12,244 nucleotides of DNA, from IMG/VR virus record IMGVR_UViG_2681813321_000010. One strand, 5' to 3'. Under the pieces are notes generated by a model, which searched no databases, was not told the origin of the DNA, and saw nothing but the letters and a program-made list of their open reading frames with translations. Shown here in pieces: positions 1-12,244 of this stretch (within the stretch, counting starts at the first letter, position 1; the number at the start of each line of letters is the position of its first letter). The position numbers were made by a program, and so were the translations under genes. The DNA is from a virus. Taxonomy: Duplodnaviria; Heunggongvirae; Uroviricota; Caudoviricetes.

Positions 1-135
1 TGCCTGGTGCCTCCAGGTGACGTTAACCAGTTAACAATTAACGCCGGATACAGAGAATCCACCCATAACACTGTTTTTGGTTTTAACTGTTCCGCGTGCG
101 CTCAGCCGCATTCACCGCATCACAAAATTCACTTT

Positions 136-193
136 AAAAACGGCGGCAGAGCAGTCACGGAGTAAAACTGATACCGCCAAACGTCACCAGAAA
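136..193 (-). ncRNA. dicF: DicF small RNA (cell-division inhibitor sRNA) with intrinsic terminator
   Basis: Minus-strand sequence TTTCTGGTGACGTTTGGCGGTATCAGTTTTACTCCGTGACTGCTCTGCCGCCGTTTTT matches my recollection of E. coli DicF; GGCGG/CCGCC stem followed by a T-run; located downstream of ydfC as in Qin. Confidence 0.8.
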
Positions 194-533
194 ATTGATA
201 ACAGAGGGCGTTGCAGCGGGGTTGTCGCTTAAGCGTATGGTCAACCTGACAACCCGGTGTCCTCAACGGGGAAGGAATAACCCCGCCATACTTACCGCCG
301 CGCCATTTCGCGGAGTGCCACAACCGGAAGCGCACGGTCGACGAAAATTTAACGACAGGCTATCTATGAACCAGCTACCTCGCCGTGCGCTTTCGCGTTA
401 TGGTCTGACTTTTCATGGAAATATCCTTTCAGTAAACTGTCAGTGCCGGATGCTCACCCATGTCCGGCGCACGCACTCCACCTCACCCGTGGAGAACTCC
501 TTAATTACCAACCTTAGCTTCGTTGGTTAGCTA

Positions 534-752
534 TTAACGCGGGTATGTAATCATTCTGGCAATGCTTAATGCCGCTGCTTTTTCCAGCCTGGTGATATCC
601 TGCTCCAGAGCGGACAGATTTTCAGCCTGCTTAGCCCTGGCTTCATTGGCCCATTTCAGATCCTGCGCTGCATTAATTTTCTGGCGCATCCACTCATAAA
701 GTTCATCATCGGTATAGTCTGGCGAGATGATGACGGGTTCTCGTTTCTGCAT
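534..752 (-). CDS. ydfC: YdfC, 72-aa Qin-type prophage protein
   Basis: 72-aa ORF in the track; GAGG ribosome-binding site upstream of the ATG; size and position after ydfB match the dicB operon. Confidence 0.8.
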   Translation of the reverse strand: MQKREPVIISPDYTDDELYEWMRQKINAAQDLKWANEARAKQAENLSALEQDITRLEKAAALSIARMITYPR

Positions 753-781
753 ACTGATTCCTCGCGGTGCTGCTTCGCTTA

Positions 782-910
782 TCAGCCGTTAGATTTTGCC
801 GAGCTGGAAAGCGCCTGTTTAAACTCACTGAAGCTGAGAGCTTCTTCGCCTTCGGCAAGGCCTTCGAAGTATTCTTCGTAAGCCTTTTCCATGATTGTGT
901 CGAAATCCAT
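782..910 (-). CDS. ydfB: YdfB, 42-aa small protein (below the ORF-track size cutoff)
   Basis: Manual translation of the minus strand gives MDFDTIMEKAYEEYFEGLAEGEEALSFSEFKQALSSSAKSNG; its ATG overlaps the ydfA stop (TGATATG); 42 aa matches known YdfB length. Confidence 0.75.
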   Translation of the reverse strand: MDFDTIMEKAYEEYFEGLAEGEEALSFSEFKQALSSSAKSNG

Positions 911-911
911 A

Positions 912-1067
912 TCACTCACCTGAGTTTCTTTCCAGCCAGCGACGGGCACCATTTTCGGTTTTAAACGTTTTGCTTCTGGTATACGTCATCGCGGTAAACG
1001 TGCCGTCCTGGTTGGGAAACACGCCGTACACCAGAGATTCGTTGTTGCCAAGATCGATAGTATCCAT
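912..1067 (-). CDS. ydfA: YdfA, 51-aa small protein
   Basis: Internal ATG of the 69-aa track ORF with a GAGG ribosome-binding site gives MDTIDLGNNESLVYGVFPNQDGTFTAMTYTRSKTFKTENGARRWLERNSGE; 51 aa matches YdfA; first gene after dicA as in Qin. Confidence 0.8.
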   Translation of the reverse strand: MDTIDLGNNESLVYGVFPNQDGTFTAMTYTRSKTFKTENGARRWLERNSGE

Positions 1068-1147
1068 GCTGACCTCATTTCCCCTTAACGCTGGGGTAGC
1101 GGAACTGTTTGCTGAGAACACCGTGCGGTGTGTTGATGCAAATAAGA

Positions 1148-1200
1148 TTAGCCATGGCTAACATATAGGTCAAGTGATTTTGTATGTTATGGCTAACATG
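1148..1200. promoter_or_regulatory. Putative DicA operator pair in the dicA-ydfA intergenic region (dicB-operon promoter region)
   Basis: Perfect palindrome TTAGCCATGGCTAA (1148-1161) and ATGTTA-TGGC-TAACAT (1185-1200) share TTAG/CTAA half-sites with the dicA-dicC intergenic palindromes. Confidence 0.5.
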
Positions 1201-1233
1201 ATTGATGTGGTAAAAGATAACTCATTGATGATG

Positions 1234-1641
1234 TTATCTTTTATTTGTCCGCTGACGGGCTTTTAGTAATTCTTCAAAGAGTTTATTGAAGTTTTTTACT
1301 CGAGCTCGCATTTCGGCGAGCTGGGTATCCTGTTCTGATTCTGGCAGTGCATTAAACAGCTCAAGGAGCTCTAGTTCTTTGGGGGATAAGGCAACTGGCT
1401 TCTCAACAGGTGGTGTTGGTTGCTTGTCTTCATCGCCAAATAGAATCCATGTTGGTGAGCATTGCAATACTTTGCTGAGGGCAAAAAGGTTCTTCCCTGT
1501 AGGTTCACTATCATCCCGTTCCCATTGTGATACAGACACATGGGAGATTTTCAGGGCTTTAGCAAGAGACCTTTGGGTGTGTTTGAGGTTTTTCCGACGA
1601 TACCTAATGCGTTCGCCGATAGTTAAATTTTTTGTTTCCAT
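1234..1641 (-). CDS. dicA: DicA, HTH (Xre-family) repressor of the dicB operon; CI-like immunity repressor
   Basis: 135-aa product METKNLTIGERIRYRRKNLKHTQRSLAKALKISHVSVSQWE... matches my recollection of E. coli K-12 DicA; N-terminal HTH; divergent from dicC. Confidence 0.92.
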   Translation of the reverse strand: METKNLTIGERIRYRRKNLKHTQRSLAKALKISHVSVSQWERDDSEPTGKNLFALSKVLQCSPTWILFGDEDKQPTPPVEKPVALSPKELELLELFNALPESEQDTQLAEMRARVKNFNKLFEELLKARQRTNKR

Positions 1642-1643
1642 AG

Positions 1644-1708
1644 TTAGCTAATGCTAAATCGTATTGACTATGTTTTTGTTAACATCTATTTTGTTAGTTA
1701 TGACTAAC
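1644..1708. promoter_or_regulatory. dicA-dicC divergent control region: two operator palindromes and a candidate rightward promoter
   Basis: TTAGC-TAAT-GCTAA (1644-1657) abuts the dicA start codon; TTGACT (1664-1669), 17-bp spacer, TATTTT (1687-1692); GTTAGT-TATG-ACTAAC (1693-1708) just downstream of the -10. Confidence 0.55.
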
Positions 1709-1724
1709 AATAAAGGTGTTTTAA

Positions 1725-1955
1725 ATGCTTAAAACTGACGCTCTTTTGTATTTCGGTTCAAAAACAAAACTTGCACAAGCAGCAGGTATTCGTTTGGCTT
1801 CGCTTTATAGCTGGAAAGGGGATTTAGTTCCCGAAGGTCGCGCGATGCGTCTACAGGAGGCATCTGGCGGGGAGCTTCAGTATGATCCCAAAGTTTATGA
1901 TGAATATCGTAAGACGAAGCGGGCGGGGCGGTTGAACAATGAAAATCACTCCTGA
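1725..1955 (+). CDS. dicC: DicC, Cro-like regulator
   Basis: 76-aa product MLKTDALLYFGSKTKLAQAAGIRLASLYSWKGDLVPEGRAMRLQEASGGELQYDPKVYDEYRK... matches my recollection of DicC; divergent from dicA. Confidence 0.9.
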   Translation: MLKTDALLYFGSKTKLAQAAGIRLASLYSWKGDLVPEGRAMRLQEASGGELQYDPKVYDEYRKTKRAGRLNNENHS

Positions 1956-2460
1956 ACAGGCTCGTGAGGCTCTGGATGCCTGGATATGTCGACCAGGAAT
2001 GACACAGGAGCAGGCGACGATATTAATCACTGAAGCATTCTGGGCTTTGAAAGAGCGCCCGAACATCGATGTTCAGCGTGTCACAGATGAAGGTGGCGCG
2101 GTTGATCAGCGAGCGCTTGGCGTTAATCGAGTGAAGATATTCGAACGCTGGAAGGCTATCGACACCAGGGATAAGCGTGAAAAGTTCACGGCGCTAGTGC
2201 CTGCGATTATGGAGGCTATCCGGATTAGTGATTTCAGGTTGTATCGTGAGATCAGTGATGGAAAAAGTATTACGTACATGATCGCCGGGTTAAATAAAGA
2301 ATATGGCGATGTGGTGGAATCCGGACTGCTTTTTGCAGATCCTGCCGTTGTAGATCGTGAAACTGACGAACTTATAGAAAAAGCAATTGCTTTCAAGCTT
2401 GCGTATCGACAGCAATACCAACAAAAAGCTGGATGGAATTATGAGTCTTCTTTTTGCTGA
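1939..2460 (+). CDS. YdaT-like protein in the CII position (putative regulator)
   Basis: 173-aa ORF overlapping the dicC 3' end; segment VKIFERWKAIDTRDKREKFTALVPAIMEAI resembles the YdaT-family core as I recall it; family assignment is from memory only. Confidence 0.6.
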   Translation: MKITPEQAREALDAWICRPGMTQEQATILITEAFWALKERPNIDVQRVTDEGGAVDQRALGVNRVKIFERWKAIDTRDKREKFTALVPAIMEAIRISDFRLYREISDGKSITYMIAGLNKEYGDVVESGLLFADPAVVDRETDELIEKAIAFKLAYRQQYQQKAGWNYESSFC

Positions 2461-3406
2461 ACGCCCACTGGTTATAAACACGCAGCTGGCAATGAAAATT
2501 GGCTTAAACGAAGCCATTGTTTTGCAACAACTGCACTACTGGTTGAGAGATACCAACTCCGGCATGGAATGTGATGGTGTTCGCTGGATTTATAACACAA
2601 CGGAACAATGGCTGGAACAGTTCCCATTCTGGTCAGAGTCAACGTTAAAGCGCGCGTTTGCAAGTCTGAAAACGCTGGGGCTTTTGCGTTGTGAAAAGCT
2701 CAATAAATCAAAGCGCGATATGACCAATTTCTACACGATCAACTACGGGAGCGAGCTTTTAGATGGTGGCAAATTGAGCGAATCCATCGGTTTAAAATGC
2801 GCCGCTCCATCAGGTCAAAATGACACGATGGAAGAGGTCAAAATGAAACGCTCCATTGGTTCAAAACGACTCAATGTCATCGGGTCAAAATGGCCTGATG
2901 ATCTTACAGAGAATACAACAGAGATTACTACAGAGAATAAAAAGACTTCTCGTCCGGAAGCTTCGCAACCGGACCCGCAGACGGTTGAACAGGATTTTTT
3001 AACCCGACACCCTGACGCGGTTGTGTTCAGTGCGAAAAAACGCCAGTGGGGCAGCCAGGAAGATTTGGCGTGTGCGCAGTGGATCTGGGGGCGAATCGTG
3101 AGTCTTTACGAGCAGGCCGCCAGCGATGATGGCGAGATTTCGCGACCGAAAGAACCCAACTGGACCGCATGGGCCAACGACGTGCGCACAATGCGGATGC
3201 TGGATGGCAGAACTCACAGACAAATTTGTGAAATGTTTGGTCGGGTGCAGCGGGATCCATTCTGGGTAAAAAATATCATGAGTCCGTCAAAGCTTCGCGA
3301 AAAATGGGATGAACTGGTTATCCGCCTGGGGCGTTCGTCTGTACAGCGTTGTGTGAATCATATTTCTGAGCCGGATACCGAAATTCCGCCGGGCTTCAGG
3401 GGGTAA
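2441..3406 (+). CDS. Replication initiator, lambda O-like (N-terminal DNA-binding domain, TE-rich linker, C-terminal domain)
   Basis: Track ORF begins at TTG 2387; the ATG at 2441 overlaps the upstream stop (ATGAGTCTT...TGA) and is the likelier start; contains iterons plus an AT-rich tract inside the coding sequence, as lambda O does. Confidence 0.75.
   Translation: MSLLFAERPLVINTQLAMKIGLNEAIVLQQLHYWLRDTNSGMECDGVRWIYNTTEQWLEQFPFWSESTLKRAFASLKTLGLLRCEKLNKSKRDMTNFYTINYGSELLDGGKLSESIGLKCAAPSGQNDTMEEVKMKRSIGSKRLNVIGSKWPDDLTENTTEITTENKKTSRPEASQPDPQTVEQDFLTRHPDAVVFSAKKRQWGSQEDLACAQWIWGRIVSLYEQAASDDGEISRPKEPNWTAWANDVRTMRMLDGRTHRQICEMFGRVQRDPFWVKNIMSPSKLREKWDELVIRLGRSSVQRCVNHISEPDTEIPPGFRG
2783..2941 (+). 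repeat. Putative replication origin inside the O-like gene: five iterons followed by three 12-bp A-rich repeats
   Basis: Iterons of consensus about TCCATCGGGTCAAAATG starting at 2783, 2806, 2829, 2852, 2876 (23-24 bp period); then ACAGAGAATACA / ACAGAGATTACT / ACAGAGAATAAA at 2906-2941. Confidence 0.7.
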
Positions 3407-3446
3407 GTGTTAATTTCTGGTCATGAGGTAATTTTCAGGAGGGCTT

Positions 3447-3869
3447 GTGGCAAAAGTTTTTACACAAGAAGAGCGGGAAAAAATTAAAGGGCAGGTTGTT
3501 GAACTCGTACGCCGGAGTGGGCGTGAGACGTTACGGCAACTGGAAGTCAAGACAGGTGCGACAAGATATCTGATGAGCGTTCTCGCAAGAGAGCTGGTTG
3601 CCAGCGGCGATGTATACAACTCTGGTTACGGGTTATTCCCGTCTGAACAGGCGCGTAAGGACTGGCAAAATGCCCGTAAAAAGCTCTCAAGGGCAAAGCT
3701 GAAGGAACCATCTGCGGTTGATCCGGACCTTATCTGGTCATTACCTGACGGAGAAATACGTCGCTACGACAGGCGTCAGAACATAATCTGTCGCGAGTGC
3801 CGGAAGAGTGAAGTTATGCAGCGCATACTAGCATTCTATCAGGGAAATGCTCGATATTTATTGAAGTGA
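3447..3869 (+). CDS. Hypothetical 140-aa protein in the P position after the initiator (C-terminal CxxC)
   Basis: GTG start 4 nt after AGGAGG (3437-3442); the paralog at 7824 has ATG at the same relative position after AGGAGG; conserved between the two modules. Confidence 0.75.
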   Translation: MAKVFTQEEREKIKGQVVELVRRSGRETLRQLEVKTGATRYLMSVLARELVASGDVYNSGYGLFPSEQARKDWQNARKKLSRAKLKEPSAVDPDLIWSLPDGEIRRYDRRQNIICRECRKSEVMQRILAFYQGNARYLLK

Positions 3870-4121
3870 TGAGATTAAAGTTTATTAGTTCAGATATTGA
3901 TTGGCTCTTTTGTGGAGTAGGGTAGAGTTAGTGTGTTTGTCTGCTTGGTGCCAGCAGCGGATATGTTTAACAACAGAAAGCATTCAGCATGGTTAGTGGA
4001 TTTGCAAAGTGGATTAGGATTTGAGAAACTTTGATGAAGTTGTAAAGCTTGTTTCTATAAAAATAGAAATTTAACTAATAGTTAAACACACCTCCAGCTT
4101 CATTGAAAAGGATTATTAGCT

Positions 4122-4547
4122 ATGATTGATCCACTTATTAGAAACTTACAGAGTGATATTGCACTACTCCAGCTTTATATCGCGCAACGCAAACAGGCAG
4201 GCTTTCATGACATGGAAAGAATAATTGAGTCATTGACCATCTTTATGTTTCGCGCGCTGAAAATGGGTGAACTGGTAAACATGAATCAGATTAAAGTTAA
4301 TTTTCCCGCCATTGATTTAGCTGATAATAAAAACATGATAGCAGTTCAAGTTACTACGAATGCAAGTCCAGCAAAAATTAAAAAAACTATCGAATCTTTT
4401 GAGAAAATAAATGAAATAGGAGAGAGTCTGAAAGATAAATACTCTACTTTATATATTTTTGGTTTTAACTGTTCCGCGTGCGCTCAGCCGCATTCACCGC
4501 ATCACAAAATTCACTTTAAAAACGGCGGCAGAGCAGTCACGGAGTAA
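4122..4547 (+). pseudogene. Probable 5' fragment of an AT-rich cargo gene, truncated at the repeat junction (about 4456); the ORF tail runs into the dicF region
   Basis: Strongly AT-rich codons up to 4455, then the last ~30 codons lie in repeat sequence whose copy-1 equivalent (74-165) is preceded by unrelated DNA; ORF end overlaps dicF copy 2 on the opposite strand. Confidence 0.45.
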
Positions 4548-4575
4548 AACTGATACCGCCAAACGTCACCAGAAA
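4518..4575 (-). ncRNA. dicF: DicF small RNA, second copy
   Basis: Identical to 136-193 at offset 4382; in this copy the repeat ends about 60 bp downstream of the terminator, so no dicB can follow. Confidence 0.8.
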
Positions 4576-4915
4576 ATTGATAACAGAGGGCGTTGCAGCG
4601 GGGTTGTCGCTTAAGCGTATGGTCAACCTGACAACCCGGTGTCCTCAACGGGGAAGGAATAACCCCGCCATACTTACCGCCGCGCCATTTCGCGGAGTGC
4701 CACAACCGGAAGCGCACGGTCGACGAAAATTTAACGACAGGCTATCTATGAACCAGCTACCTCGCCGTGCGCTTTCGCGTTATGGTCTGACTTTTCATGG
4801 AAATATCCTTTCAGTAAACTGTCAGTGCCGGATGCTCACCCATGTCCGGCGCACGCACTCCACCTCACCCGTGGAGAACTCCTTAATTACCAACCTTAGC
4901 TTCGTTGGTTAGCTA

Positions 4916-5134
4916 TTAACGCGGGTATGTAATCATTCTGGCAATGCTTAATGCCGCTGCTTTTTCCAGCCTGGTGATATCCTGCTCCAGAGCGGACAGA
5001 TTTTCAGCCTGCTTAGCCCTGGCTTCATTGGCCCATTTCAGATCCTGCGCTGCATTAATTTTCTGGCGCATCCACTCATAAAGTTCATCATCGGTATAGT
5101 CTGGCGAGATGATGACGGGTTCTCGTTTCTGCAT
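4916..5134 (-). CDS. ydfC: YdfC, second copy
   Basis: 72-aa ORF identical in protein to 534-752. Confidence 0.8.
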   Translation of the reverse strand: MQKREPVIISPDYTDDELYEWMRQKINAAQDLKWANEARAKQAENLSALEQDITRLEKAAALSIARMITYPR

Positions 5135-5163
5135 ACTGATTCCTCGCGGTGCTGCTTCGCTTA

Positions 5164-5292
5164 TCAGCCGTTAGATTTTGCCGAGCTGGAAAGCGCCTGT
5201 TTAAACTCACTGAAGCTGAGAGCTTCTTCGCCTTCGGCAAGGCCTTCGAAGTATTCTTCGTAAGCCTTTTCCATGATTGTGTCGAAATCCAT
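5164..5292 (-). CDS. ydfB: YdfB, second copy (42 aa)
   Basis: DNA identical to 782-910 at offset 4382. Confidence 0.75.
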   Translation of the reverse strand: MDFDTIMEKAYEEYFEGLAEGEEALSFSEFKQALSSSAKSNG

Positions 5293-5293
5293 A

Positions 5294-5449
5294 TCACTCA
5301 CCTGAGTTTCTTTCCAGCCAGCGACGGGCACCATTTTCGGTTTTAAACGTTTTGCTTCTGGTATACGTCATCGCGGTAAACGTGCCGTCCTGGTTGGGAA
5401 ACACGCCGCATACCAGAGATTCGTTGTTGCCAAGATCGATAGTATTCAT
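5294..5449 (-). CDS. ydfA: YdfA, second copy (51 aa, two substitutions relative to copy 1)
   Basis: Same internal ATG as copy 1; product MNTIDLGNNESLVCGVFPNQ... Confidence 0.8.
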   Translation of the reverse strand: MNTIDLGNNESLVCGVFPNQDGTFTAMTYTRSKTFKTENGARRWLERNSGE

Positions 5450-5529
5450 GCTGACCTCATTTCCCCTTAACGCCGGGGTAGCGGAACTGTTTGCTGAGAA
5501 CACCGTGCGGTGTCTTGGTGGAGATTAAT

Positions 5530-5579
5530 TTAGAATAACCTAACAAATGTAGCAAGTATTTTTGTTAGATTGGTCTAAC
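5530..5579. promoter_or_regulatory. Putative operator pair downstream of the dicA-like gene (module 2 leftward-operon control region)
   Basis: TTAGAATAACCTAA (5530-5543) and palindrome GTTAGA-TTGG-TCTAAC (5564-5579); same TTAG/CTAA half-site logic as module 1. Confidence 0.45.
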
Positions 5580-5616
5580 AAAAAGAGTGAGGGAATCTAA
5601 GTATCTGAAAGGAGTG

Positions 5617-6024
5617 TTATTTTATTGATTTGTTTTTACGTGCTTTAAGCATTTCTTCGAAGAGTTTATTGAAATTCTCTACTCTTGCGCGCATTTCAGA
5701 CAGTAAGGCTTCCTGCTCGGAGGAGGGAAGAGCATCGAATAATTCGATCAATTCTTTGTGGCTGGGAGTTAACTCGGTTTCCACATGAAGTTCTTGTGCT
5801 GGCACTGGTGCCTTGTCTTCGTCACCAAACATTAGCCATGTAGGCGAGCACTTCAGCGCATCAGCTAAAGCAAATAACCGCTTCCCGACCGGTTGGGTTT
5901 CGTCTCTTTCCCATTGTGAAATTGTGACGTGAGCTACCCCAGCGAGGCGTGCAGCTTCTCGTTGTGTTAGGCGTAATTCTTTTCGTCGTGCCAGAACTCG
6001 CTGGCCTAGGGTTCTTGTATCCAT
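5617..6024 (-). CDS. DicA-like HTH repressor, divergent paralog (CI-like immunity repressor of module 2)
   Basis: 135 aa; C-terminal half nearly identical to DicA (...CSPTW..FGDEDK...EMRARV.NFNKLFEE.LKAR), N-terminal HTH diverged (QREAARLAGVAHVTISQWE). Confidence 0.85.
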   Translation of the reverse strand: MDTRTLGQRVLARRKELRLTQREAARLAGVAHVTISQWERDETQPVGKRLFALADALKCSPTWLMFGDEDKAPVPAQELHVETELTPSHKELIELFDALPSSEQEALLSEMRARVENFNKLFEEMLKARKNKSIK

Positions 6025-6030
6025 AGTTAG

Positions 6031-6090
6031 GTAATTCTAATTTTTCTTGACTTAGGTATCCCGCGCACATTACTGTTAGGAATATCTAAC
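6031..6090. promoter_or_regulatory. Module 2 divergent control region with operator palindromes
   Basis: TTAGGTAATTCTAA (6031-6044) abuts the dicA-like start; TTGACT at 6047-6052; GTTAGGAATATCTAAC (6075-6090) precedes the dicC-like gene. Confidence 0.45.
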
Positions 6091-6104
6091 AAGAGGGGGC
6101 TTTG

Positions 6105-6332
6105 ATGCTTAAAGTTGACGCAATTACTTTTTTTGGCAGCAAAACAAAACTTGCCAATGCCGCAGGAGTGAAACTGGCAAGTGTTGCTGCATGGGGGGAA
6201 CTGGTTCCTGAAGGTCGCGCGATGCGCCTGCAAGAGGCATCCGGCGGGGAACTTCAGTACGACCCCAAAGTTTATGACGAATATCGTAAGGCAAAGCGGG
6301 CGGGGCGGTTGAACAATGAAAATCACCCCTGA
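6105..6332 (+). CDS. DicC-like Cro-type regulator (paralog)
   Basis: Track ORF starts at TTG 6102; ATG at 6105 preceded by GAGGGGG; product about 85% identical to DicC by eye. Confidence 0.85.
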   Translation: MLKVDAITFFGSKTKLANAAGVKLASVAAWGELVPEGRAMRLQEASGGELQYDPKVYDEYRKAKRAGRLNNENHP

Positions 6333-6837
6333 ACAGGTTTGTGAGGCTCTGGATGCCTGGGTATGCCGACCAGGAATGACACAGGAGCAGGCGACGATAT
6401 TAATCACGGAAGCATTCTGGGCTCTGAAAGAACGCCCGAACATCGATGTTCAACGCGTCACGTTTAATGATGGCGAGGTTGATCAACGGGCGTTGGGCGT
6501 TAACCGGGTGAAGATATTCGAACGCTGGAAAGCTATCGACACCAGGGATAAGCGGGAAAAATTCACGGCGCTGATTCCGGCAATTATGGAGGCTATCCGG
6601 ATCAGCGATTTCAGGTTGTATTGTGAAATTACTGACGGAAAAAGCATTACGTACATGATCGCCGGGTTAAACAAAGAATATGGTGATGTGGTGGAGTCCG
6701 GGCTGCTTTTTGCGGATCCATCTGTTGTGGAACGTGAGACTGACGAGCTTATAGAAAAAGCTATTGCTTTCAAGCATGCGTATCGTCAGCAATACCAACA
6801 AAAAGCTGGATGGAATTATGAGCCTTCTTTTTGCTGA
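6316..6837 (+). CDS. YdaT-like protein in the CII position (paralog of 1939-2460)
   Basis: 173 aa, roughly 90% identical by eye to the module 1 copy; same overlap arrangement with neighbouring genes. Confidence 0.6.
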   Translation: MKITPEQVCEALDAWVCRPGMTQEQATILITEAFWALKERPNIDVQRVTFNDGEVDQRALGVNRVKIFERWKAIDTRDKREKFTALIPAIMEAIRISDFRLYCEITDGKSITYMIAGLNKEYGDVVESGLLFADPSVVERETDELIEKAIAFKHAYRQQYQQKAGWNYEPSFC

Positions 6838-7783
6838 ACGCCCACTGGTTATAAACACACAGCTTGCGATGAAGATTGGCTTAAATGAAGCCATTGTGTT
6901 GCAGCAGTTGCATTACTGGTTGAGAGATACCAGTTCCGGTATGGAATGTGACGGGGTTCGCTGGATTTATAACACAACAGAACAATGGCTGGAACAGTTC
7001 CCGTTCTGGTCAGAGTCAACGTTAAAACGCGCATTTGCAAGTCTGAAAACGCTGGGGCTTTTGCGTTGCGAAAAGCTCAACAAATCAAAGCGTGATATGA
7101 CTAATTTTTACACGATTAATTACGAGAGTGAGCTTTTAGATGGTGGCAAAGTGAGCGAATCCATCAGGTCAAAATGCGCCGCTCCATCGGGTCAAAATGA
7201 CACGATGGAAGAGGTCAAAATGGCACGCTCCATTGGTTCAAAACGACCCAATGTCATCGGGTCAAAATGGCCTGATGATCTTACAGAGAATACAACAGAG
7301 ATTACTACAGAGAATAAAAACACTTCTCGTCCGGAAGCTTCGCAACCGGACCCGCAGACGGCTGAACAGGATTTTTTAACCCGACACCCTGACGCGGTTG
7401 TGTTCAGTGCGAAAAAACGCCAGTGGGGAAGTCAGGAAGATTTGGCGTGCGCACAGTGGATCTGGGGACGAATCGTGAGTCTTTACGAGCAGGCTGCCAG
7501 CGATGATGGCGAGATCACGCGACCGAAAGAACCAAACTGGACCGCATGGGCCAATGACGTGCGCACAATGCGGATGCTGGATGGCAGAAGCCACAGACAA
7601 ATTTGCGAAATGTTTGGTCGGGTACAGCGAGATCCATTCTGGGTAAAAAACATCATGAGCCCGTCAAAGCTTCGCGAAAAATGGGACGACCTGGTCATCC
7701 GCCTGGGGCGTTCACCTGTACAGTGTTGTGTGAATCATATTTCTGAACCGGATACCGAAATTCCGCCTGGTTTCAGGGGATAA
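6818..7783 (+). CDS. Replication initiator, lambda O-like (paralog)
   Basis: ATG at 6818 overlaps the upstream stop exactly as in module 1; carries the equivalent iterons. Confidence 0.75.
   Translation: MSLLFAERPLVINTQLAMKIGLNEAIVLQQLHYWLRDTSSGMECDGVRWIYNTTEQWLEQFPFWSESTLKRAFASLKTLGLLRCEKLNKSKRDMTNFYTINYESELLDGGKVSESIRSKCAAPSGQNDTMEEVKMARSIGSKRPNVIGSKWPDDLTENTTEITTENKNTSRPEASQPDPQTAEQDFLTRHPDAVVFSAKKRQWGSQEDLACAQWIWGRIVSLYEQAASDDGEITRPKEPNWTAWANDVRTMRMLDGRSHRQICEMFGRVQRDPFWVKNIMSPSKLREKWDDLVIRLGRSPVQCCVNHISEPDTEIPPGFRG
7160..7318 (+). repeat. Putative replication origin of module 2 (five iterons plus A-rich 12-bp repeats)
   Basis: Iterons begin at 7160, 7183, 7206, 7229, 7253, the same positions as module 1 at offset 4377. 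Confidence 0.7.
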
Positions 7784-7823
7784 GTGGTGATTTTAGGGCA
7801 TAAAGTAATGTTCAGGAGGACTT

Positions 7824-8231
7824 ATGGCAAAAGTATTTACACAGGAAGAGCGGGAAAAAATTAAAGGACAGGTGGTGGAACTCGTGCGCCAGAGCGGTCG
7901 TGAGACGTTACGGCAACTGGAAGCTAAAACAGGTGCGACAAGATATCTGATGAGCGTTCTTGCCAGAGAGCTGGTTGCCAGTGGTGATGTATATCACTCT
8001 GGCTATGGGGTGTTCCCGTCAGAACGGGCTCGTAAGGACTGGCAAAACGCCCGCAAAAAACTCTCGAGGGCAAAGGTGAAGAAACCTGTTGTGGTTGATC
8101 CGGGCCTTATCTGGACATTACCCGACGGAGAAATACGCCGCTACGACAGGCGTATGAACATAATCTGTCGCGAGTGCCGGAAGAGCGAAGTTATGCAGCG
8201 TGTATTGGCGTTCTATCAGGGATATGCCTAG
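7824..8231 (+). CDS. Hypothetical 135-aa protein in the P position (paralog of 3447-3869)
   Basis: ATG 4 nt after AGGAGG; about 90% identical by eye to the module 1 copy. Confidence 0.75.
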   Translation: MAKVFTQEEREKIKGQVVELVRQSGRETLRQLEAKTGATRYLMSVLARELVASGDVYHSGYGVFPSERARKDWQNARKKLSRAKVKKPVVVDPGLIWTLPDGEIRRYDRRMNIICRECRKSEVMQRVLAFYQGYA

Positions 8232-8599
8232 AATTGTCACAGGTAATGAAATTAAAGAGTATTGGTTCGGATATGAATTGACATTTTCGCGGCACAGAGC
8301 TAAAAATAGCCTACTTGTTGGTTTTGTGTGAAAAGCAGACATTTTGAGGCTCAGGATTTGTTATCAAATAAGACCAATACTTATCTATATTAATACACAT
8401 TAAATACTGTGCAATACATTATTGCATTTTATTAGATAAGCGATATTTAGGGAAAAGAAAAGTCATAGAAAACAGGCCGCTATTTGTTGTTGGATTTTAT
8501 AGGCTATATCTAGATTATCTTGCCACTGCGGTCTCTGTTTACCTAACAGCTTGGGCTTCTTTGCATGCAAGTTTGTAATAACAAGAGTAATCAAACGGA

Positions 8600-9631
8600 A
8601 TGTCTATTAATCCTAAACTTAAGCGTATCGCGCGACGCTATCCAGCGTTATTCCAATATGAGTCCCCCTATATGGCAAGAAAATTAATAATATTCGGCAA
8701 CGGTCTCGGTATGGCTTTAGATCCTGCTCACTTCTCCTTAGACAGAGCGTTGGAAGAAATTTGGCATCGCCCCAATTTTTTAAAAGATATCCACAAGCAA
8801 CTTATCGAGCGTTGTCTTCAGCGGCAAGGTCCACCAGAAGGAGAACATGAGTTGGATACCCTTCACCAGGCTGTCACATATTGTAAAGCTCTTGCTCAAA
8901 TTGGAGAGGGGAACGTGCATTGGCTTACTGAAGATGGACTAAACTTCCCCAAAATTACCGCCACTTATATTCACAAAGTTGCAACCAGGTTGCATAATTA
9001 CGATAAAGGTTTGCCACAAAGATTCGAAAATGCGCTTGTGGAGTTTGTAAAGAACACACACTCACATATCGCGACATTAAACTATGACAAATTATTATAC
9101 AATTCATTCATAGATAATGATATATTCAACGGGTATGATGGGGTTTTAGTTGATGGGATGCTAAGCCACGGATTTTCCTCTGCAGCGCTCGAACGGAAAT
9201 ACAATCGTAGGTTTGGTTATTATTTGCACTTGCATGGTTCACCACTATTTATTAATCAGCATGAAAATGTTTTAAAACTTTCACGCTCACAACTTACTCT
9301 TGACATAGATGAACCTAGTGAGCATATAGTGTTAACTCATATAAAAAGAAAACCGTCAGTTATAGCAGCATCTAATGTTCTTTCTACGTACTGGGATTAT
9401 TTGCAGTTTGCATTATTTGAATCAGAAGAAATAATATTGTTTGGTTACTCTGGTCTCGATATTCACCTTAACCTGCTTATTCGACCTTACCTAACCTCTA
9501 AGCCTTTAAGAGTAATTGAGTGGAGCGGTGCTGGTGAACAAAACGCTCGTGAGATATATTGGAAAAACCAGTTGAGACGGGAAGTTACTGTAATTAGGTT
9601 GGATAACATCACTGATTTTATTGATTGGTAG
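8600..9631 (+). CDS. SIR2-like (SIR2_2-type) single-domain protein, candidate NAD-consuming defence or abortive-infection effector
   Basis: 343 aa, AT-rich codon usage; ordered motifs LIIFGNGLG (Rossmann-like), TLNYDKL (sirtuin-type N/D), YLHLHGS (His), ILFGYSGLD, in the same order as SIR2-like domains such as Thoeris ThsA; preceded by about 370 bp of AT-rich DNA. Confidence 0.6.
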   Translation: MSINPKLKRIARRYPALFQYESPYMARKLIIFGNGLGMALDPAHFSLDRALEEIWHRPNFLKDIHKQLIERCLQRQGPPEGEHELDTLHQAVTYCKALAQIGEGNVHWLTEDGLNFPKITATYIHKVATRLHNYDKGLPQRFENALVEFVKNTHSHIATLNYDKLLYNSFIDNDIFNGYDGVLVDGMLSHGFSSAALERKYNRRFGYYLHLHGSPLFINQHENVLKLSRSQLTLDIDEPSEHIVLTHIKRKPSVIAASNVLSTYWDYLQFALFESEEIILFGYSGLDIHLNLLIRPYLTSKPLRVIEWSGAGEQNAREIYWKNQLRREVTVIRLDNITDFIDW

Positions 9632-9701
9632 CGCAATGCGAAGTTAAAGAGGCAGCCTCATATTTATCAGAGCTGGTGTACGTCCAATACAGGAGGTTAT
9701 C

Positions 9702-9791
9702 GTGCTGGTTCTCAAATGCGCGCTGGCTATTGCGGCTGTAGTGGCAATTTATTGTCTTGCTATTGTTCTTATGGATCGCCTTTCTGATTGA
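9702..9791 (+). CDS. Candidate 29-aa hydrophobic single-helix peptide (VLVLKCALAIAAVVAIYCLAIVLMDRLSD)
   Basis: GTG start 5 nt after a perfect AGGAGG (9691-9696); uniformly hydrophobic core of about 20 residues; below the ORF-track size cutoff. Confidence 0.4.
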   Translation: MLVLKCALAIAAVVAIYCLAIVLMDRLSD

Positions 9792-10002
9792 TTTTATATT
9801 GGCGAGGTGACGGGAGTTAAGTAGAATTGCTGCGGGTGCTTGAGGCTGTCTGCCTCGGGCATGCCACCGTAAGGCAGACAGAGAAAAGCCCCAGTTAACA
9901 TTACGCGTCCTGCAAGACGCTTAACATTAATCTGAGGCCCAATCTATGCTTCACAAACGTAGGTTAGCCTCTTACGCGCCGAAAGGCAAGGAGAAGCAGG
10001 CT

Positions 10003-10158
10003 ATGAAGCAGCAAAAGGCGATGTTAATCGCCCTGATCGTCATCTGTTTAACCGTCATAGTGACGGCACTGGTAACGAGGAAAGACCTCTGCGAGGTACG
10101 AATCCGAACCGGCCAGACGGAGGTCGCTGTCTTCACAGCTTACGAACCTGAGGAGTAA
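10003..10158 (+). CDS. hokD: HokD (RelF), Hok/Gef-family type I membrane toxin
   Basis: MKQQKAMLIALIVICLTVIVTALVTRKDLCEVRIRTGQTEVAVFTAYEPEE matches my recollection of HokD and the Hok signature (TRK.LCE.R...G..EVA.F.AYE); the track ORF from 9946 is an in-frame upstream extension. Confidence 0.85.
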   Translation: MKQQKAMLIALIVICLTVIVTALVTRKDLCEVRIRTGQTEVAVFTAYEPEE

Positions 10159-10226
10159 GAGACCAGGCGGGGGAGAAATCCCTCGCCACCGCTGATGTGT
10201 CAGGCATCCTCAACGCACCCGCACTT

Positions 10227-10253
10227 AACCCGCTTCGGCGGGTTTTTGTTTTT
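10227..10253 (+). terminator. Intrinsic terminator after hokD
   Basis: CCCGC-TTCG-GCGGG stem-loop (10229-10242) followed by TTTTTGTTTTT. Confidence 0.8.
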
Positions 10254-10266
10254 ATTTTCAACGCAT

Positions 10267-10296
10267 TTGAAGTTCTGGACGGTGTCGGAATAGAAT
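10267..10296 (+). promoter_or_regulatory. Candidate sigma70 promoter for the 83-aa gene
   Basis: TTGAAG (10267-10272), 18-bp spacer, TAGAAT (10291-10296); lies just after the hokD terminator. Confidence 0.4.
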
Positions 10297-10374
10297 CAAA
10301 AATACTTAAGTAGCGCGCAGGGATAAGAGGGATGGTCCCTTAAAGGGGAGAGCTAATTATCCGGAAGGATTCTG

Positions 10375-10626
10375 ATGATGAACATCGAAGAACTGCGTAA
10401 AATTTTTTGTGAAGATGGCCTCTATGCTGTGTGCGTTGAAAATGGAAATATTGTTAGTCATTACCGCATTGTGTGTTTGCGAAAGAATGGGGCTGCGTTA
10501 ATTAATTTTGTGGATGGTCGAGTGACAGACGGATTTATCTTGCGCGAAGGTGAGTTTGTCACTTCATTACAGGCACTGAAAGAGATCGGAATAAAAGCTG
10601 GCTTTTCTGCTTTTTCAGAAGAATAA
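10375..10626 (+). CDS. 83-aa hypothetical prophage protein, possibly the Rem homolog
   Basis: GGAAGG 6 nt upstream of the ATG; same size as Rem (83 aa) and same position between hokD and the ydfU-like gene as in Qin; I cannot recall the Rem sequence to confirm. Confidence 0.65.
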   Translation: MMNIEELRKIFCEDGLYAVCVENGNIVSHYRIVCLRKNGAALINFVDGRVTDGFILREGEFVTSLQALKEIGIKAGFSAFSEE

Positions 10627-10692
10627 ACTCATCTACAATCTTGCGCGGGGCTGAACTCCCGCTGAGTAACACCGTGCCGCCGGAGGAAACCG

Positions 10693-10971
10693 ATGGCACG
10701 CAACGCAAAATATTACAATCATGATAATTCGACCGTTCTTGCCCACACGCACGAGCGGTATTCTCACGCATTTAAGTCAGACTGGTACCAGCATCCCCCA
10801 TGCACTGAAGAACAGGCCGAATGGCTCATTCAGTGTTACCGCAGGCGCGGATGCGAGGTTAAAAAAGCCCTTAGCCTCGACTACCGTCACTGGATAATCT
10901 CCGTCGGGCTTCCTTACTCCGAACGCCCACCGCGTCTGTCCCGCACATTCCAGCAACGCATCTGGAGGTAA
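10693..10971 (+). CDS. 92-aa hypothetical protein
   Basis: GGAGG 7 nt upstream of the ATG; stop immediately precedes the next gene's start. Confidence 0.6.
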   Translation: MARNAKYYNHDNSTVLAHTHERYSHAFKSDWYQHPPCTEEQAEWLIQCYRRRGCEVKKALSLDYRHWIISVGLPYSERPPRLSRTFQQRIWR

Positions 10972-10972
10972 C

Positions 10973-12022
10973 GTGCGGGTATTACTTCGACCTGTTCTGG
11001 TACCGGAACTCGGGCTGGTGGTCCTTAAGCCCGGTCGCGAATCACTGCCGGTTTTTCATTGCGGCAGGGTGCTGGTGGAGCCGGAACCGAAAAGCATGCG
11101 CGGTCTGCCGTCCGGAGTCGTCCCTGCCGTTCGCCAGCCGCTGGCGGAGGATAAATCATTACTGCCATTTTTCAGCGATGAGCGTGTGATTCGTGCTGCT
11201 GGCGGCGCTGGCGCACTGTCTGACTGGCTCCTGCGTCATGTCAAATCCTGCCAGTGGCCTCATGGTGACTACCATCACAGTGAAACCGTCATACATCGTT
11301 ATGGTACCGGCGCAATGGTGTTGTGCTGGCACTGCGACAACCAGCTGCGCGACCAGACCTCCGAATCACTCGGGCAACTTGCTCACCAAAACCTGTCTGC
11401 ATGGATGATTGACGTCATACGCCATGCAATGAATGGCTCGCAGGAACGGGAATTATCGCTGGCTGAATTATCCTGGTGGGCGATCCGCAATCAGGTGGCG
11501 GACGCGCTACCGGAAGCGGTATTACGTCGTTCGCTGGGGTTGCGTGCGGAAAAAATCCGCTCAATGTACCGTGAAAGCGACATCGTACCGGGAGAGCAGA
11601 CCGCCACCAGCATACTGAAACAGCGCACAAAAAATCTTGCGCCGCTGCCTCACGCCCACCAGCAACAGAACCCGCCACAGGAAAAGACGGTGGTCAGCAT
11701 TGCTGTTGATCCGGAGTCTCCGGAATCTTTAATGAAGCGACCTAAACGTCGCCGTTGGGTAAATGAGAAATATACGCGCTGGGTAAAGACACAGCCGTGT
11801 GCGTGTTGTGGTAAGCCAGCCGACGATCCCCATCACCTGATTGGTCATGGTCAGGGCGGAATAGGGACAAAAGCCCACGATATTTTCACGCTACCGTTGT
11901 GCCGGGAGCATCACAACGAACTTCATGCTGATCCGCTGGCATTTGAAGAAAAGCATGGTTCCCAGATTGATTTAATTTTTCGTTTTCTTGATCGCGCCTT
12001 TGCAACCGGCGTGCTCGGGTAA
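10973..12022 (+). CDS. DUF968-family prophage protein (YdfU-like) with a C-terminal HNH-like Cys/His motif
   Basis: 349 aa; GTG start after GGAGG; C-terminus CACCGKPADDPHHLIGHG...LPLCREHHNELHA resembles HNH/zinc-binding nuclease motifs; size and synteny match Qin ydfU. Confidence 0.7.
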   Translation: MRVLLRPVLVPELGLVVLKPGRESLPVFHCGRVLVEPEPKSMRGLPSGVVPAVRQPLAEDKSLLPFFSDERVIRAAGGAGALSDWLLRHVKSCQWPHGDYHHSETVIHRYGTGAMVLCWHCDNQLRDQTSESLGQLAHQNLSAWMIDVIRHAMNGSQERELSLAELSWWAIRNQVADALPEAVLRRSLGLRAEKIRSMYRESDIVPGEQTATSILKQRTKNLAPLPHAHQQQNPPQEKTVVSIAVDPESPESLMKRPKRRRWVNEKYTRWVKTQPCACCGKPADDPHHLIGHGQGGIGTKAHDIFTLPLCREHHNELHADPLAFEEKHGSQIDLIFRFLDRAFATGVLG

Positions 12023-12034
12023 AAGAGGTTACTG

Positions 12035-12244
12035 ATGCGTATAGAGTTTGTTTTGCCTTACCCGCCGACGGTGAACACCTACTGGCGACGTCGTGGCAGC
12101 ACATATTTTGTGTCAAAAGCCGGTGAGCGTTATCGCCGGGATGTGGCACTTATTGTTCGCCAGCAGCGGCTGAAATTAAACCTGTCCGGAAGGCTGGCGA
12201 TAAAGATTATTGCAGAGCCACCGGATAAGCGCCGCCGCGACCTG
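12035..12244 (+). CDS. rusA: RusA-family Holliday-junction resolvase, 5' partial (runs off the window end)
   Basis: MRIEFVLPYPPTVNTYWRRRG...YRRDVALIV...IKIIAEPPDKRRRDL matches the RusA N-terminal pattern (P..N.Y....G......YR..VA.I......I.I....PD.RRRDLDN); AGAGG ribosome-binding site. Confidence 0.8.
   Translation, partial: MRIEFVLPYPPTVNTYWRRRGSTYFVSKAGERYRRDVALIVRQQRLKLNLSGRLAIKIIAEPPDKRRRDL

Follow-up and report, generated by a model that had tools for sequence, protein, structure and literature searches.

Two Qin/DicF-type early regions in tandem in an Escherichia coli lambdoid prophage sequence, probably a recombinant of two co-resident prophages

The window analyzed here, the whole of a 12,244-nucleotide stretch from the viral record IMGVR_UViG_2681813321_000010 of IMG/VR (Caudoviricetes), contains, one behind the other, two copies of the immunity-replication region of a lambdoid prophage of the Qin/DicF type. 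Each copy is a full early region, comprising the small RNA DicF, ydfCBA, a DicA-like repressor, Cro/DicC, a cII-like YdaT protein, an O-like replication initiator and a DUF977 protein. An earlier reading, made from the letters without database searches (the sequence-only reading), had proposed two complete immunity-replication modules in tandem, and the full gene set is indeed found in both. We describe the repeat, trace its parts to two prophages of E. coli, and argue that the window is probably a recent recombinant of two related, co-resident Qin/DicF-type prophages of one E. coli lineage.

Architecture and gene content of the tandem

Compared with itself by BLAST, the window shows one match away from the diagonal, between 74-3903 and 4456-8280 (87.1% identity over 3,858 columns), and a repeat finder places the spacing, in the same register, at 4,382 bp. 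The left edge of the repeat is sharp, since positions 1-73 and 4383-4455 are unrelated, and it falls where the sequence-only reading had put a junction, at 4456. From this edge rightward, 953 bp are identical base for base (74-1026 and 4456-5408); mismatches follow at 1027, 1029, 1064 and 1092, and over the whole 1.06-kb direct repeat (74-1131 and 4456-5513) 1,054 of 1,058 positions agree without a gap. The two repeats, called near-identical by eye, are thus not far less similar on alignment than they had appeared. The span first given to the arrangement, 74-5513, had the coordinates of these repeats right but stopped short of the duplicated modules, which reach 8280. Between about 1132 and 1857, where the operators, the repressor gene and the first half of cro (5' side) lie, the copies are only 49-67% identical; identity is back to 84-98% over 1858-3857, and similarity stops near 3903/8280.

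Both modules are laid out alike. DicF, ydfC, ydfB, ydfA and a repressor of 135 amino acids with a helix-turn-helix (HTH) domain lie on the minus strand, while the Cro-like, YdaT, O-like and DUF977 genes lie on the plus strand. DicF follows ydfA-ydfB-ydfC on the leftward strand in both copies, and in both the HTH repressor diverges from the Cro-like gene with an Oc-type operator between them, as expected of the Qin/DicF type. The copies differ from each other in what lies beyond DicF. Only copy 1 has the dicF-dicB spacer (1-73, minus strand) on its left; the spacer aligns with 8001-8073 of reference prophage L001 and 6401-6473 of reference prophage L002, in which dicB lies about 35 bp beyond the edge of the window (dicB ends at L001 7966). 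Copy 2 has no dicB directly downstream of dicF: the minus strand runs through 67 nt of spacer and then into antisense sequence of a gene with a SMEK domain.

The DicF genes themselves (141-192 and 4523-4574, both minus strand) each score 72.5 bits against Rfam RF00039 (E 9e-15 for copy 1), where the gathering score is 48. Folding shows that DicF ends in a GGCGG...CCGCC hairpin followed by a U-run; for DicF with its flank the folding z-score is 0.13, and the known terminal hairpin alone is worth noting. The rest of the leftward block consists of ydfC (534-752), ydfB (782-910) and ydfA/DUF1391 (912-1067) in copy 1, transferred from the RefSeq annotation of L002, and of ydfC (4916-5134), ydfB (5164-5292) and ydfA/DUF1391 (5294-5449) in copy 2, from that of L001; all six are on the minus strand. 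The YdfC and YdfB pairs are 100% identical in both amino acids and nucleotides, and the YdfA pair agrees at 49 of 51 amino acids (98.1% of nucleotides).

The repressor genes are the most diverged pair, as the sequence-only reading had noticed: the proteins are 55.5% identical (59.6% in nucleotides). The gene of module 1 (1234-1641, minus strand; Pfam HTH_3, E 1e-15) is dicA, a name that RefSeq gives to the identical gene in L002, L003 and L005; its counterpart in module 2 lies at 5617-6024 (minus strand; HTH_3, E 1e-14). On the rightward side follow dicC, a Cro-like gene of 76 amino acids (1725-1955; Pfam P22_Cro, E 2e-11), and a Cro-like gene of 75 amino acids in module 2 (6105-6332; P22_Cro, E 2e-13), with 81.6% amino acid and 77.5% nucleotide identity. 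The by-eye estimate of about 85% for dicC was therefore somewhat too high, whereas the other estimates came close. The cII-like genes of the YdaT family (1939-2460, Pfam YdaT_toxin and phrog_163 CII-like, E 2e-40; and 6316-6837, from the RefSeq annotation of L001) are 91.9% identical in amino acids and 89.5% in nucleotides. For the O-like initiators (2441-3406, phrog_391, E 4.5e-95; and 6818-7783, annotated in L001) the values are 95.6% and 93.2%, and for the DUF977 genes (3447-3869, DUF977/Ren-like, Pfam DUF977, E 2e-30, and phrog_142; and 7824-8231, annotated in L001) they are 85.7% and 84.2%. All of these genes are on the plus strand. Each O-like gene contains five iterons of 23 bp (repeat family D1), at 2771-2900 and at 7162-7277. 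The iteron core is GGTCAAAATG; behind each array comes a pair of TACAGAGAATAnAA repeats, and the two putative origins, 4.4 kb apart, are almost identical.

A pattern search for operator-like sites of the form TGTTAG-N6-CTAACA finds six in the window where 0.47 are expected, and they occupy equivalent places in the two modules: 1146, 1181 and 1692 in module 1, and 5528, 5563 and 6074 in module 2. The first two of each set lie in the leftward promoter region, between dicA and ydfA in module 1 (1146-1198) and at the corresponding place in module 2 (5528-5580). The third is the Oc-type operator, TGTTAGTTATGACTAACA in the dicA-dicC intergenic region (1692-1709) and TGTTAGGAATATCTAACA between repressor and cro in module 2 (6074-6091). 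The DicA operator Oc of E. coli K-12 is TTGTTAGTCATAACTAACAA, and one change in its CTAACA half-site was reported to abolish binding (PMC3441716). The stretch of the recognition helix is nearly conserved between the two repressors (SHVSVSQWERD and AHVTISQWERD). Because both modules have retained the outer half-sites of Oc although their repressors have diverged, the term heteroimmune is not established for this pair, and cross-recognition, with overlapping immunity, is possible. A scan of the window for promoters and terminators gave nothing above shuffled expectation.

Parent prophages and the two joins

The two modules lead to two different prophages. The first, B, adjoins yccA in E. coli O111:H2 strain 12A and in FDAARGOS_1059. 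Window positions 4456-12244 are identical to the 12A copy of B at 7,789 of 7,789 bases, and the copy in FDAARGOS_1059 is one base off. The second, A, lies beside tRNA-Ser/mtfA in the same two genomes and has true DicA/DicC immunity, its repressor gene being the one that RefSeq calls dicA. Positions 1027-4466 are identical to A of FDAARGOS_1059 and of six other genomes at 3,440 of 3,440 bases, and the 12A copy of A differs at one base, position 1710. Across 1818-3897 the two copies in the window differ by 200 mismatches (90.11% identity), which is exactly the difference between A and B in 12A; there is no drift since the event. In both genomes A and B are about 1.2 Mb apart and in opposite orientation.

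B is rare: the region 4456-12244 occurs at an identity of at least 99% in three of 5,426 complete E. coli genomes (12A, FDAARGOS_1059 and 602687). Because two of these three carriers also hold A, the natural reading of the comparison is an origin within one genome. The next matches to the B-type region are about 91-93% identical and cover 85-88% of the query. In 12A and FDAARGOS_1059 the annotation shows a frameshift in the integrase of the A-type prophage beside tRNA-Ser/mtfA (L002 2114-3164; L005 687-1737), while B has an intact integrase at yccA; probably, then, the A parent is grounded and does not excise.

The first of the two joins lies within the leftward block. Positions 117-1002 contain 26 sites that distinguish A from B, and all 26 are of B type in copy 1, which turns to A sequence from 1027 onward, while copy 2 is of B type throughout. 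Direct repeat copy 1 (74-1131) is thus B-type through 1002 and A-type from 1027, whereas direct repeat copy 2 (4456-5513) is B-type over its full length. A clean allele switch of this kind, confined to the interval 1003-1026 and set in a block that A and B share at about 97% identity, is what homologous exchange between prophages leaves behind. The DicF gene shows the same allele types at the 3'-terminal base of the Rfam match (141; 4523 in copy 2), where the A-type base is G and the B-type base C, and both copies in the window are B-type.

The second join is illegitimate. Similarity to A extends to 4466 and similarity to B begins at 4456, leaving an 11-bp microhomology, TTTTTGGTTTT, at 4456-4466 in which the parents overlap, while the sequences to its left, 4383-4455 on the A side and 1-73 on the B side, are unrelated. 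The same 11 bp can be read in the intact SMEK gene of prophage A (L002 10857-10867), in the dicF-dicB spacer (window 74-84) and at the junction itself, and the window departs from the intact gene straight after 4466. In prophage A this gene, of 299 amino acids (L002 10523-11422), lies downstream of DUF977 and is accompanied by a methyltransferase gene. In the window it is cut after codon 115, giving a fusion reading frame of 141 amino acids (4122-4547, plus strand) that consists of 115 of the 299 SMEK codons and 26 unrelated codons contributed by the repeat; Pfam SMEK_N covers residues 9-114 of the fusion, corresponding to positions 2-102 of the 140 in the profile.

The junction is private to this window. 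It is absent from the 5,426 complete genomes and from 50,697 phage and 72,556 plasmid records, and neither a 50-mer nor a 29-mer that spans it occurs in the viral, metagenome or species-representative collections searched. The exact fusion protein is not on record: its homologues are ordinary or contig-truncated SMEK proteins, and none has 141 amino acids. None of the phage records searched has two ydfABC-dicF blocks; the 52 that hold the block have one each. A unique junction fits a private, recent and unstable rearrangement, and it fits a chimeric contig equally.

The phage search also returned matches to the DicF region in odd hosts. A segment of 130 bp in the 254-kb Aeromonas phage AP1 (MT713136.1, 249906-250035) is 99.2% identical to window 74-203, and 70 bp of Actinobacillus phage vB_Apl-pPE4 match the same region at 95.7%, pointing to contamination or to a conserved short element.

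Origin of the tandem

We consider it probable, then, that A and B recombined recently while resident in the same lineage, and we rate the reality of the tandem structure about as highly. On this reading B would supply positions 1-1026 and 4456-12244, and A would supply 1027-4466. The first join would be a homologous exchange in the shared, ydfA-proximal part of the block, with the switch inside 1003-1026; the second would be the illegitimate one at TTTTTGGTTTT, linking codon 115 of A's SMEK gene to B's dicF-dicB spacer. The most economical route appears to be a double template switch, or break-induced copying: a strand of B that ends in the shared block would copy about 3.4 kb of A and return to B 953 bp behind the point of departure. 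The outcome would be 3.4 kb of A placed in B together with a duplication of B 74-1026. Because B 74-1026 would be duplicated in the event itself, the two 953-bp copies would be identical from the start, and no later gene conversion need be invoked. Several points weigh against this origin: the double template switch has the allele pattern as its sole witness; A and B are the same over 1-116, so that these positions assign the left arm to neither, which bears on the exact route; and the junction is attested by this window only.

The last of these points is where a chimeric contig enters, in which separate A and B regions of one genome have been stitched together in silico or in vitro and the cell itself has no tandem. 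Possible causes are a chimeric long read, a template jump during the polymerase chain reaction (PCR) or multiple displacement amplification, and a scaffolder merging on a short overlap. Such an artifact would account for a junction and a hybrid copy 1 that are found in no other record searched, for parts that are base-perfect copies of loci co-existing in related genomes, and for the disruption of a gene at the junction. It would, however, take two separate switches, from B to A inside 24 bp and from A to B at the 11-bp overlap, and both switch points are shorter than the usual de Bruijn k-mers, so that an assembly graph should offer no edge there. A mis-join guided by the repeats would yield one hybrid module rather than a tandem, and long-read ligation chimeras have no reason to show microhomology. 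Nor is there an error signature, with no indels relative to the parents over 11.2 kb. Repeat collapse by the assembler clearly did not occur. With these arguments on either side, we regard a chimera as possible but rather unlikely.

We are similarly doubtful of a third origin, in which the structure is real but was reached by another route. A single illegitimate exchange would have joined the left part of A (int ... dicA ... the truncated SMEK gene) to the right part of B (dicF ... late genes), either by a terminus-symmetric inversion between oppositely oriented prophages or in a cross of replicating phage genomes. The opposite orientation of A and B in 12A and FDAARGOS_1059 suits the inversion: a break in the SMEK gene and another in the spacer, followed by inversion, would produce exactly the A-left/B-right junction seen. 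Inversions between prophages are documented (PMC8112680), and positions 1-116 are compatible with either left arm. The difficulty lies in copy 1, whose ydfABC-dicF block would have to have been converted to the type of copy 2, unless the block of A was already B-like. Conversion calls for an extra tract over the 26 sites in 117-1002 that ends before 1027, while an A-type prophage whose block is hybrid occurs in no complete genome (against 1-1700 the closest match has 99.3% identity, and none reaches 100%). The reciprocal dicB/'SMEK junction, searched as an 800-bp synthetic query at a coverage of at least 80%, is likewise found in none of the 5,426 genomes.

Much less probable is the insertion into B of a lambda-dv-like circle derived from A (74-4455, closed at the junction of the truncated SMEK gene and the spacer) by a Campbell-type crossover in the shared block. 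The 4,382-bp unit does hold what such a circle would need, namely a repressor/Cro switch, a cII-like gene and an O-like initiator with iterons, and Campbell insertion leaves direct repeats flanking the insert. A crossover at 1003-1026, however, predicts A alleles at 117-1002 in copy 2, and copy 2 has the B allele at 26 of 26 sites. In its simple form, insertion of an A-type circle is ruled out by these sites, and the model would need a further conversion or a donor block that was already B-like.

Least probable of all is integrase-mediated tandem integration, or a prophage within a prophage, with partial deletion later: tandem prophages and prophages within prophages are common in enteropathogenic E. 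coli (EPEC) and Shiga toxin-producing E. coli (PMC8112680), and tandem PPompW/Stx2 records are among the phage matches, but at the junction the B sequence begins in the dicF-dicB spacer and not at attP, the A side lies inside a reading frame with no known attachment (att) core, and the space between the modules lacks int, xis, exo and dicB of B, which take up about 4.3 kb in L001. The whole interval measures no more than 4,382 bp. Integration mediated by att sites, in either form, is ruled out, as there is no att site at the junction and neither int nor xis in that interval. The sequence-only reading had offered lambdoid mosaicism or tandem and partial prophage integration; the former holds in a broad sense, and the latter is contradicted by a 4.38-kb interval without integrase, att site or structural genes. 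The repeat unit is neither a whole prophage nor one that was once whole, since it consists of 4.38 kb of early genes only. A simple tandem duplication of one locus is ruled out as well, the copies being 87% identical to each other and each 100% identical to a different prophage.

Consequences and comparison with known systems

The product is one prophage with two repressor/Cro switches, two cII-like genes, two O-like initiators with iteron origins and two DicF genes. To the right of the tandem the window continues along B. A SIR2-family gene (8672-9631, plus strand; Pfam SIR2_2, E 9e-6; a weak PADLOC hit to Aga_SIR2, E 3e-6; and RefSeq annotation) marks the right end of the duplicated homology and fills the slot that the SMEK and methyltransferase genes occupy in the A-type prophage. 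This slot downstream of DUF977 (3870-4466 and 8232-9631; L002 10523-13098) is where the similarity between A and B stops. The cargo of A consists of the SMEK-domain gene (PADLOC model Aga_REase-PNTD, E 1e-20), an S-adenosylmethionine-dependent methyltransferase gene and a hypothetical gene, and the slot looks like a variable cargo site that may serve defence genes. Between the SIR2 gene and rem lies a type I toxin-antitoxin pair (9834-10158), formed by hokD and an antisense RNA, sok (Rfam RF01794, 116 bits), that overlaps its start. Downstream of module 2 there is one rem gene (10375-10626, plus strand), annotated as protein Rem in L001; Rem is a known antirepressor of DicA (PMC10448788).

The arrangement would divide the prophage between its two switches. 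We expect a promoter of module 1 to drive dicB and, farther out on the left arm, ydfD-like, exo, xis and int, all outside the window, and a promoter of module 2 to drive the right arm (SIR2, hok/sok, rem, DUF968 and the genes beyond). With the arms under different modules, release of both repressors should be required for full induction. The leftward transcript of copy 2 would either stop at the terminal hairpin of DicF or run on, antisense, into the truncated SMEK gene and module 1. The structure doubles the DicF gene, inactivates the SMEK-domain gene and would split the arms between two repressors.

It should also be fragile. Long perfect direct repeats are substrates for RecA-dependent deletion or amplification, as the sequence-only reading pointed out. 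A RecA crossover within the 953-bp repeats would remove 4,382 bp and restore prophage B exactly, and repeats of this length should make the structure unstable, with deletion at high frequency in recA+ cells; a crossover in the zone of 84-98% identity would instead give a hybrid with the immunity of DicA. That the tandem is maintained as a working double switch, with cross-regulation between the repressors, one Rem for both, a doubled dosage of DicF and loop-out as a lambda-dv-like circle, seems improbable to us. If it were so, the looped circle of 4,382 bp would come with a repressor/Cro switch, an O-like initiator and an iteron origin of its own.

If real, the window is an unusually clean snapshot of how a lambdoid mosaic originates, with both parents present at 100% identity in sister genomes and no drift between them and the product. 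It would then bear on the relative parts of homologous and illegitimate recombination in phage mosaicism, a debate framed in PMC3945230, as both would have been used in one product. For genome curation, it marks a place where an assembly deserves to be checked against the reads.

The closest known relatives are the cryptic prophage Qin of K-12, with its dicA-dicC switch and ydfABC-dicF-dicB operon, and phage mEp460_ev081, a functional relative of Qin that is among the best phage matches to the window. They share with it the leftward order dicF-ydfC-ydfB-ydfA and a DicA-type repressor divergent from the Cro-like DicC (PMC3441716; PMC10448788), as well as the Oc-type operator (TGTTAG-N6-CTAACA), a downstream rem and a DicF recognized by Rfam. 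Unlike Qin, the window has the module twice in 8.2 kb, and the second module has a repressor 55.5% identical to DicA and a DicF without dicB behind it. Both copies in the window also keep the cII-like, O-like and DUF977 genes, in which they again differ from K-12 Qin.

Recombination between prophages is documented in E. coli (PMC2669165, PMC8112680, PMC3945230), and the present case resembles those of enterohemorrhagic E. coli (EHEC) and EPEC, which include hybrid prophages, terminus-symmetric inversions and prophage clusters, in that two related prophages of one chromosome would have exchanged sequence. It differs in its second join: the described cases are homologous or att-mediated, whereas here the join is illegitimate, spans 11 bp and lies inside a gene. 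The outcome differs too: two early regions stand in a local tandem, and no arm has been swapped.

With tandem duplications and lambda-dv derivatives of phage lambda, and with the short-homology illegitimate recombination that forms lambda bio transducing phages, the window has in common a novel joint at a homology of about 10 bp, a repeat unit that includes the immunity-replication region, and long direct repeats that should render it unstable in the presence of recA. Unlike them, it has units from two prophages that are 87% identical overall, and its likeness to an autonomous replicon is one of gene content only.

The pattern is also like that of microhomology-mediated break-induced replication (PMC2621351), a model proposed for eukaryotic copy-number variants. 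As in that template-switch model, a homologous switch is combined with a switch at microhomology that lands behind the starting point, and the duplication encloses foreign sequence between its copies; unlike there, such a mechanism is suggested here solely by the pattern of alleles and the sequence at the junction. The components are all known. What is new is their arrangement, a further case of recombination between prophages that stands out mainly because both parents and both joints can be read so cleanly.

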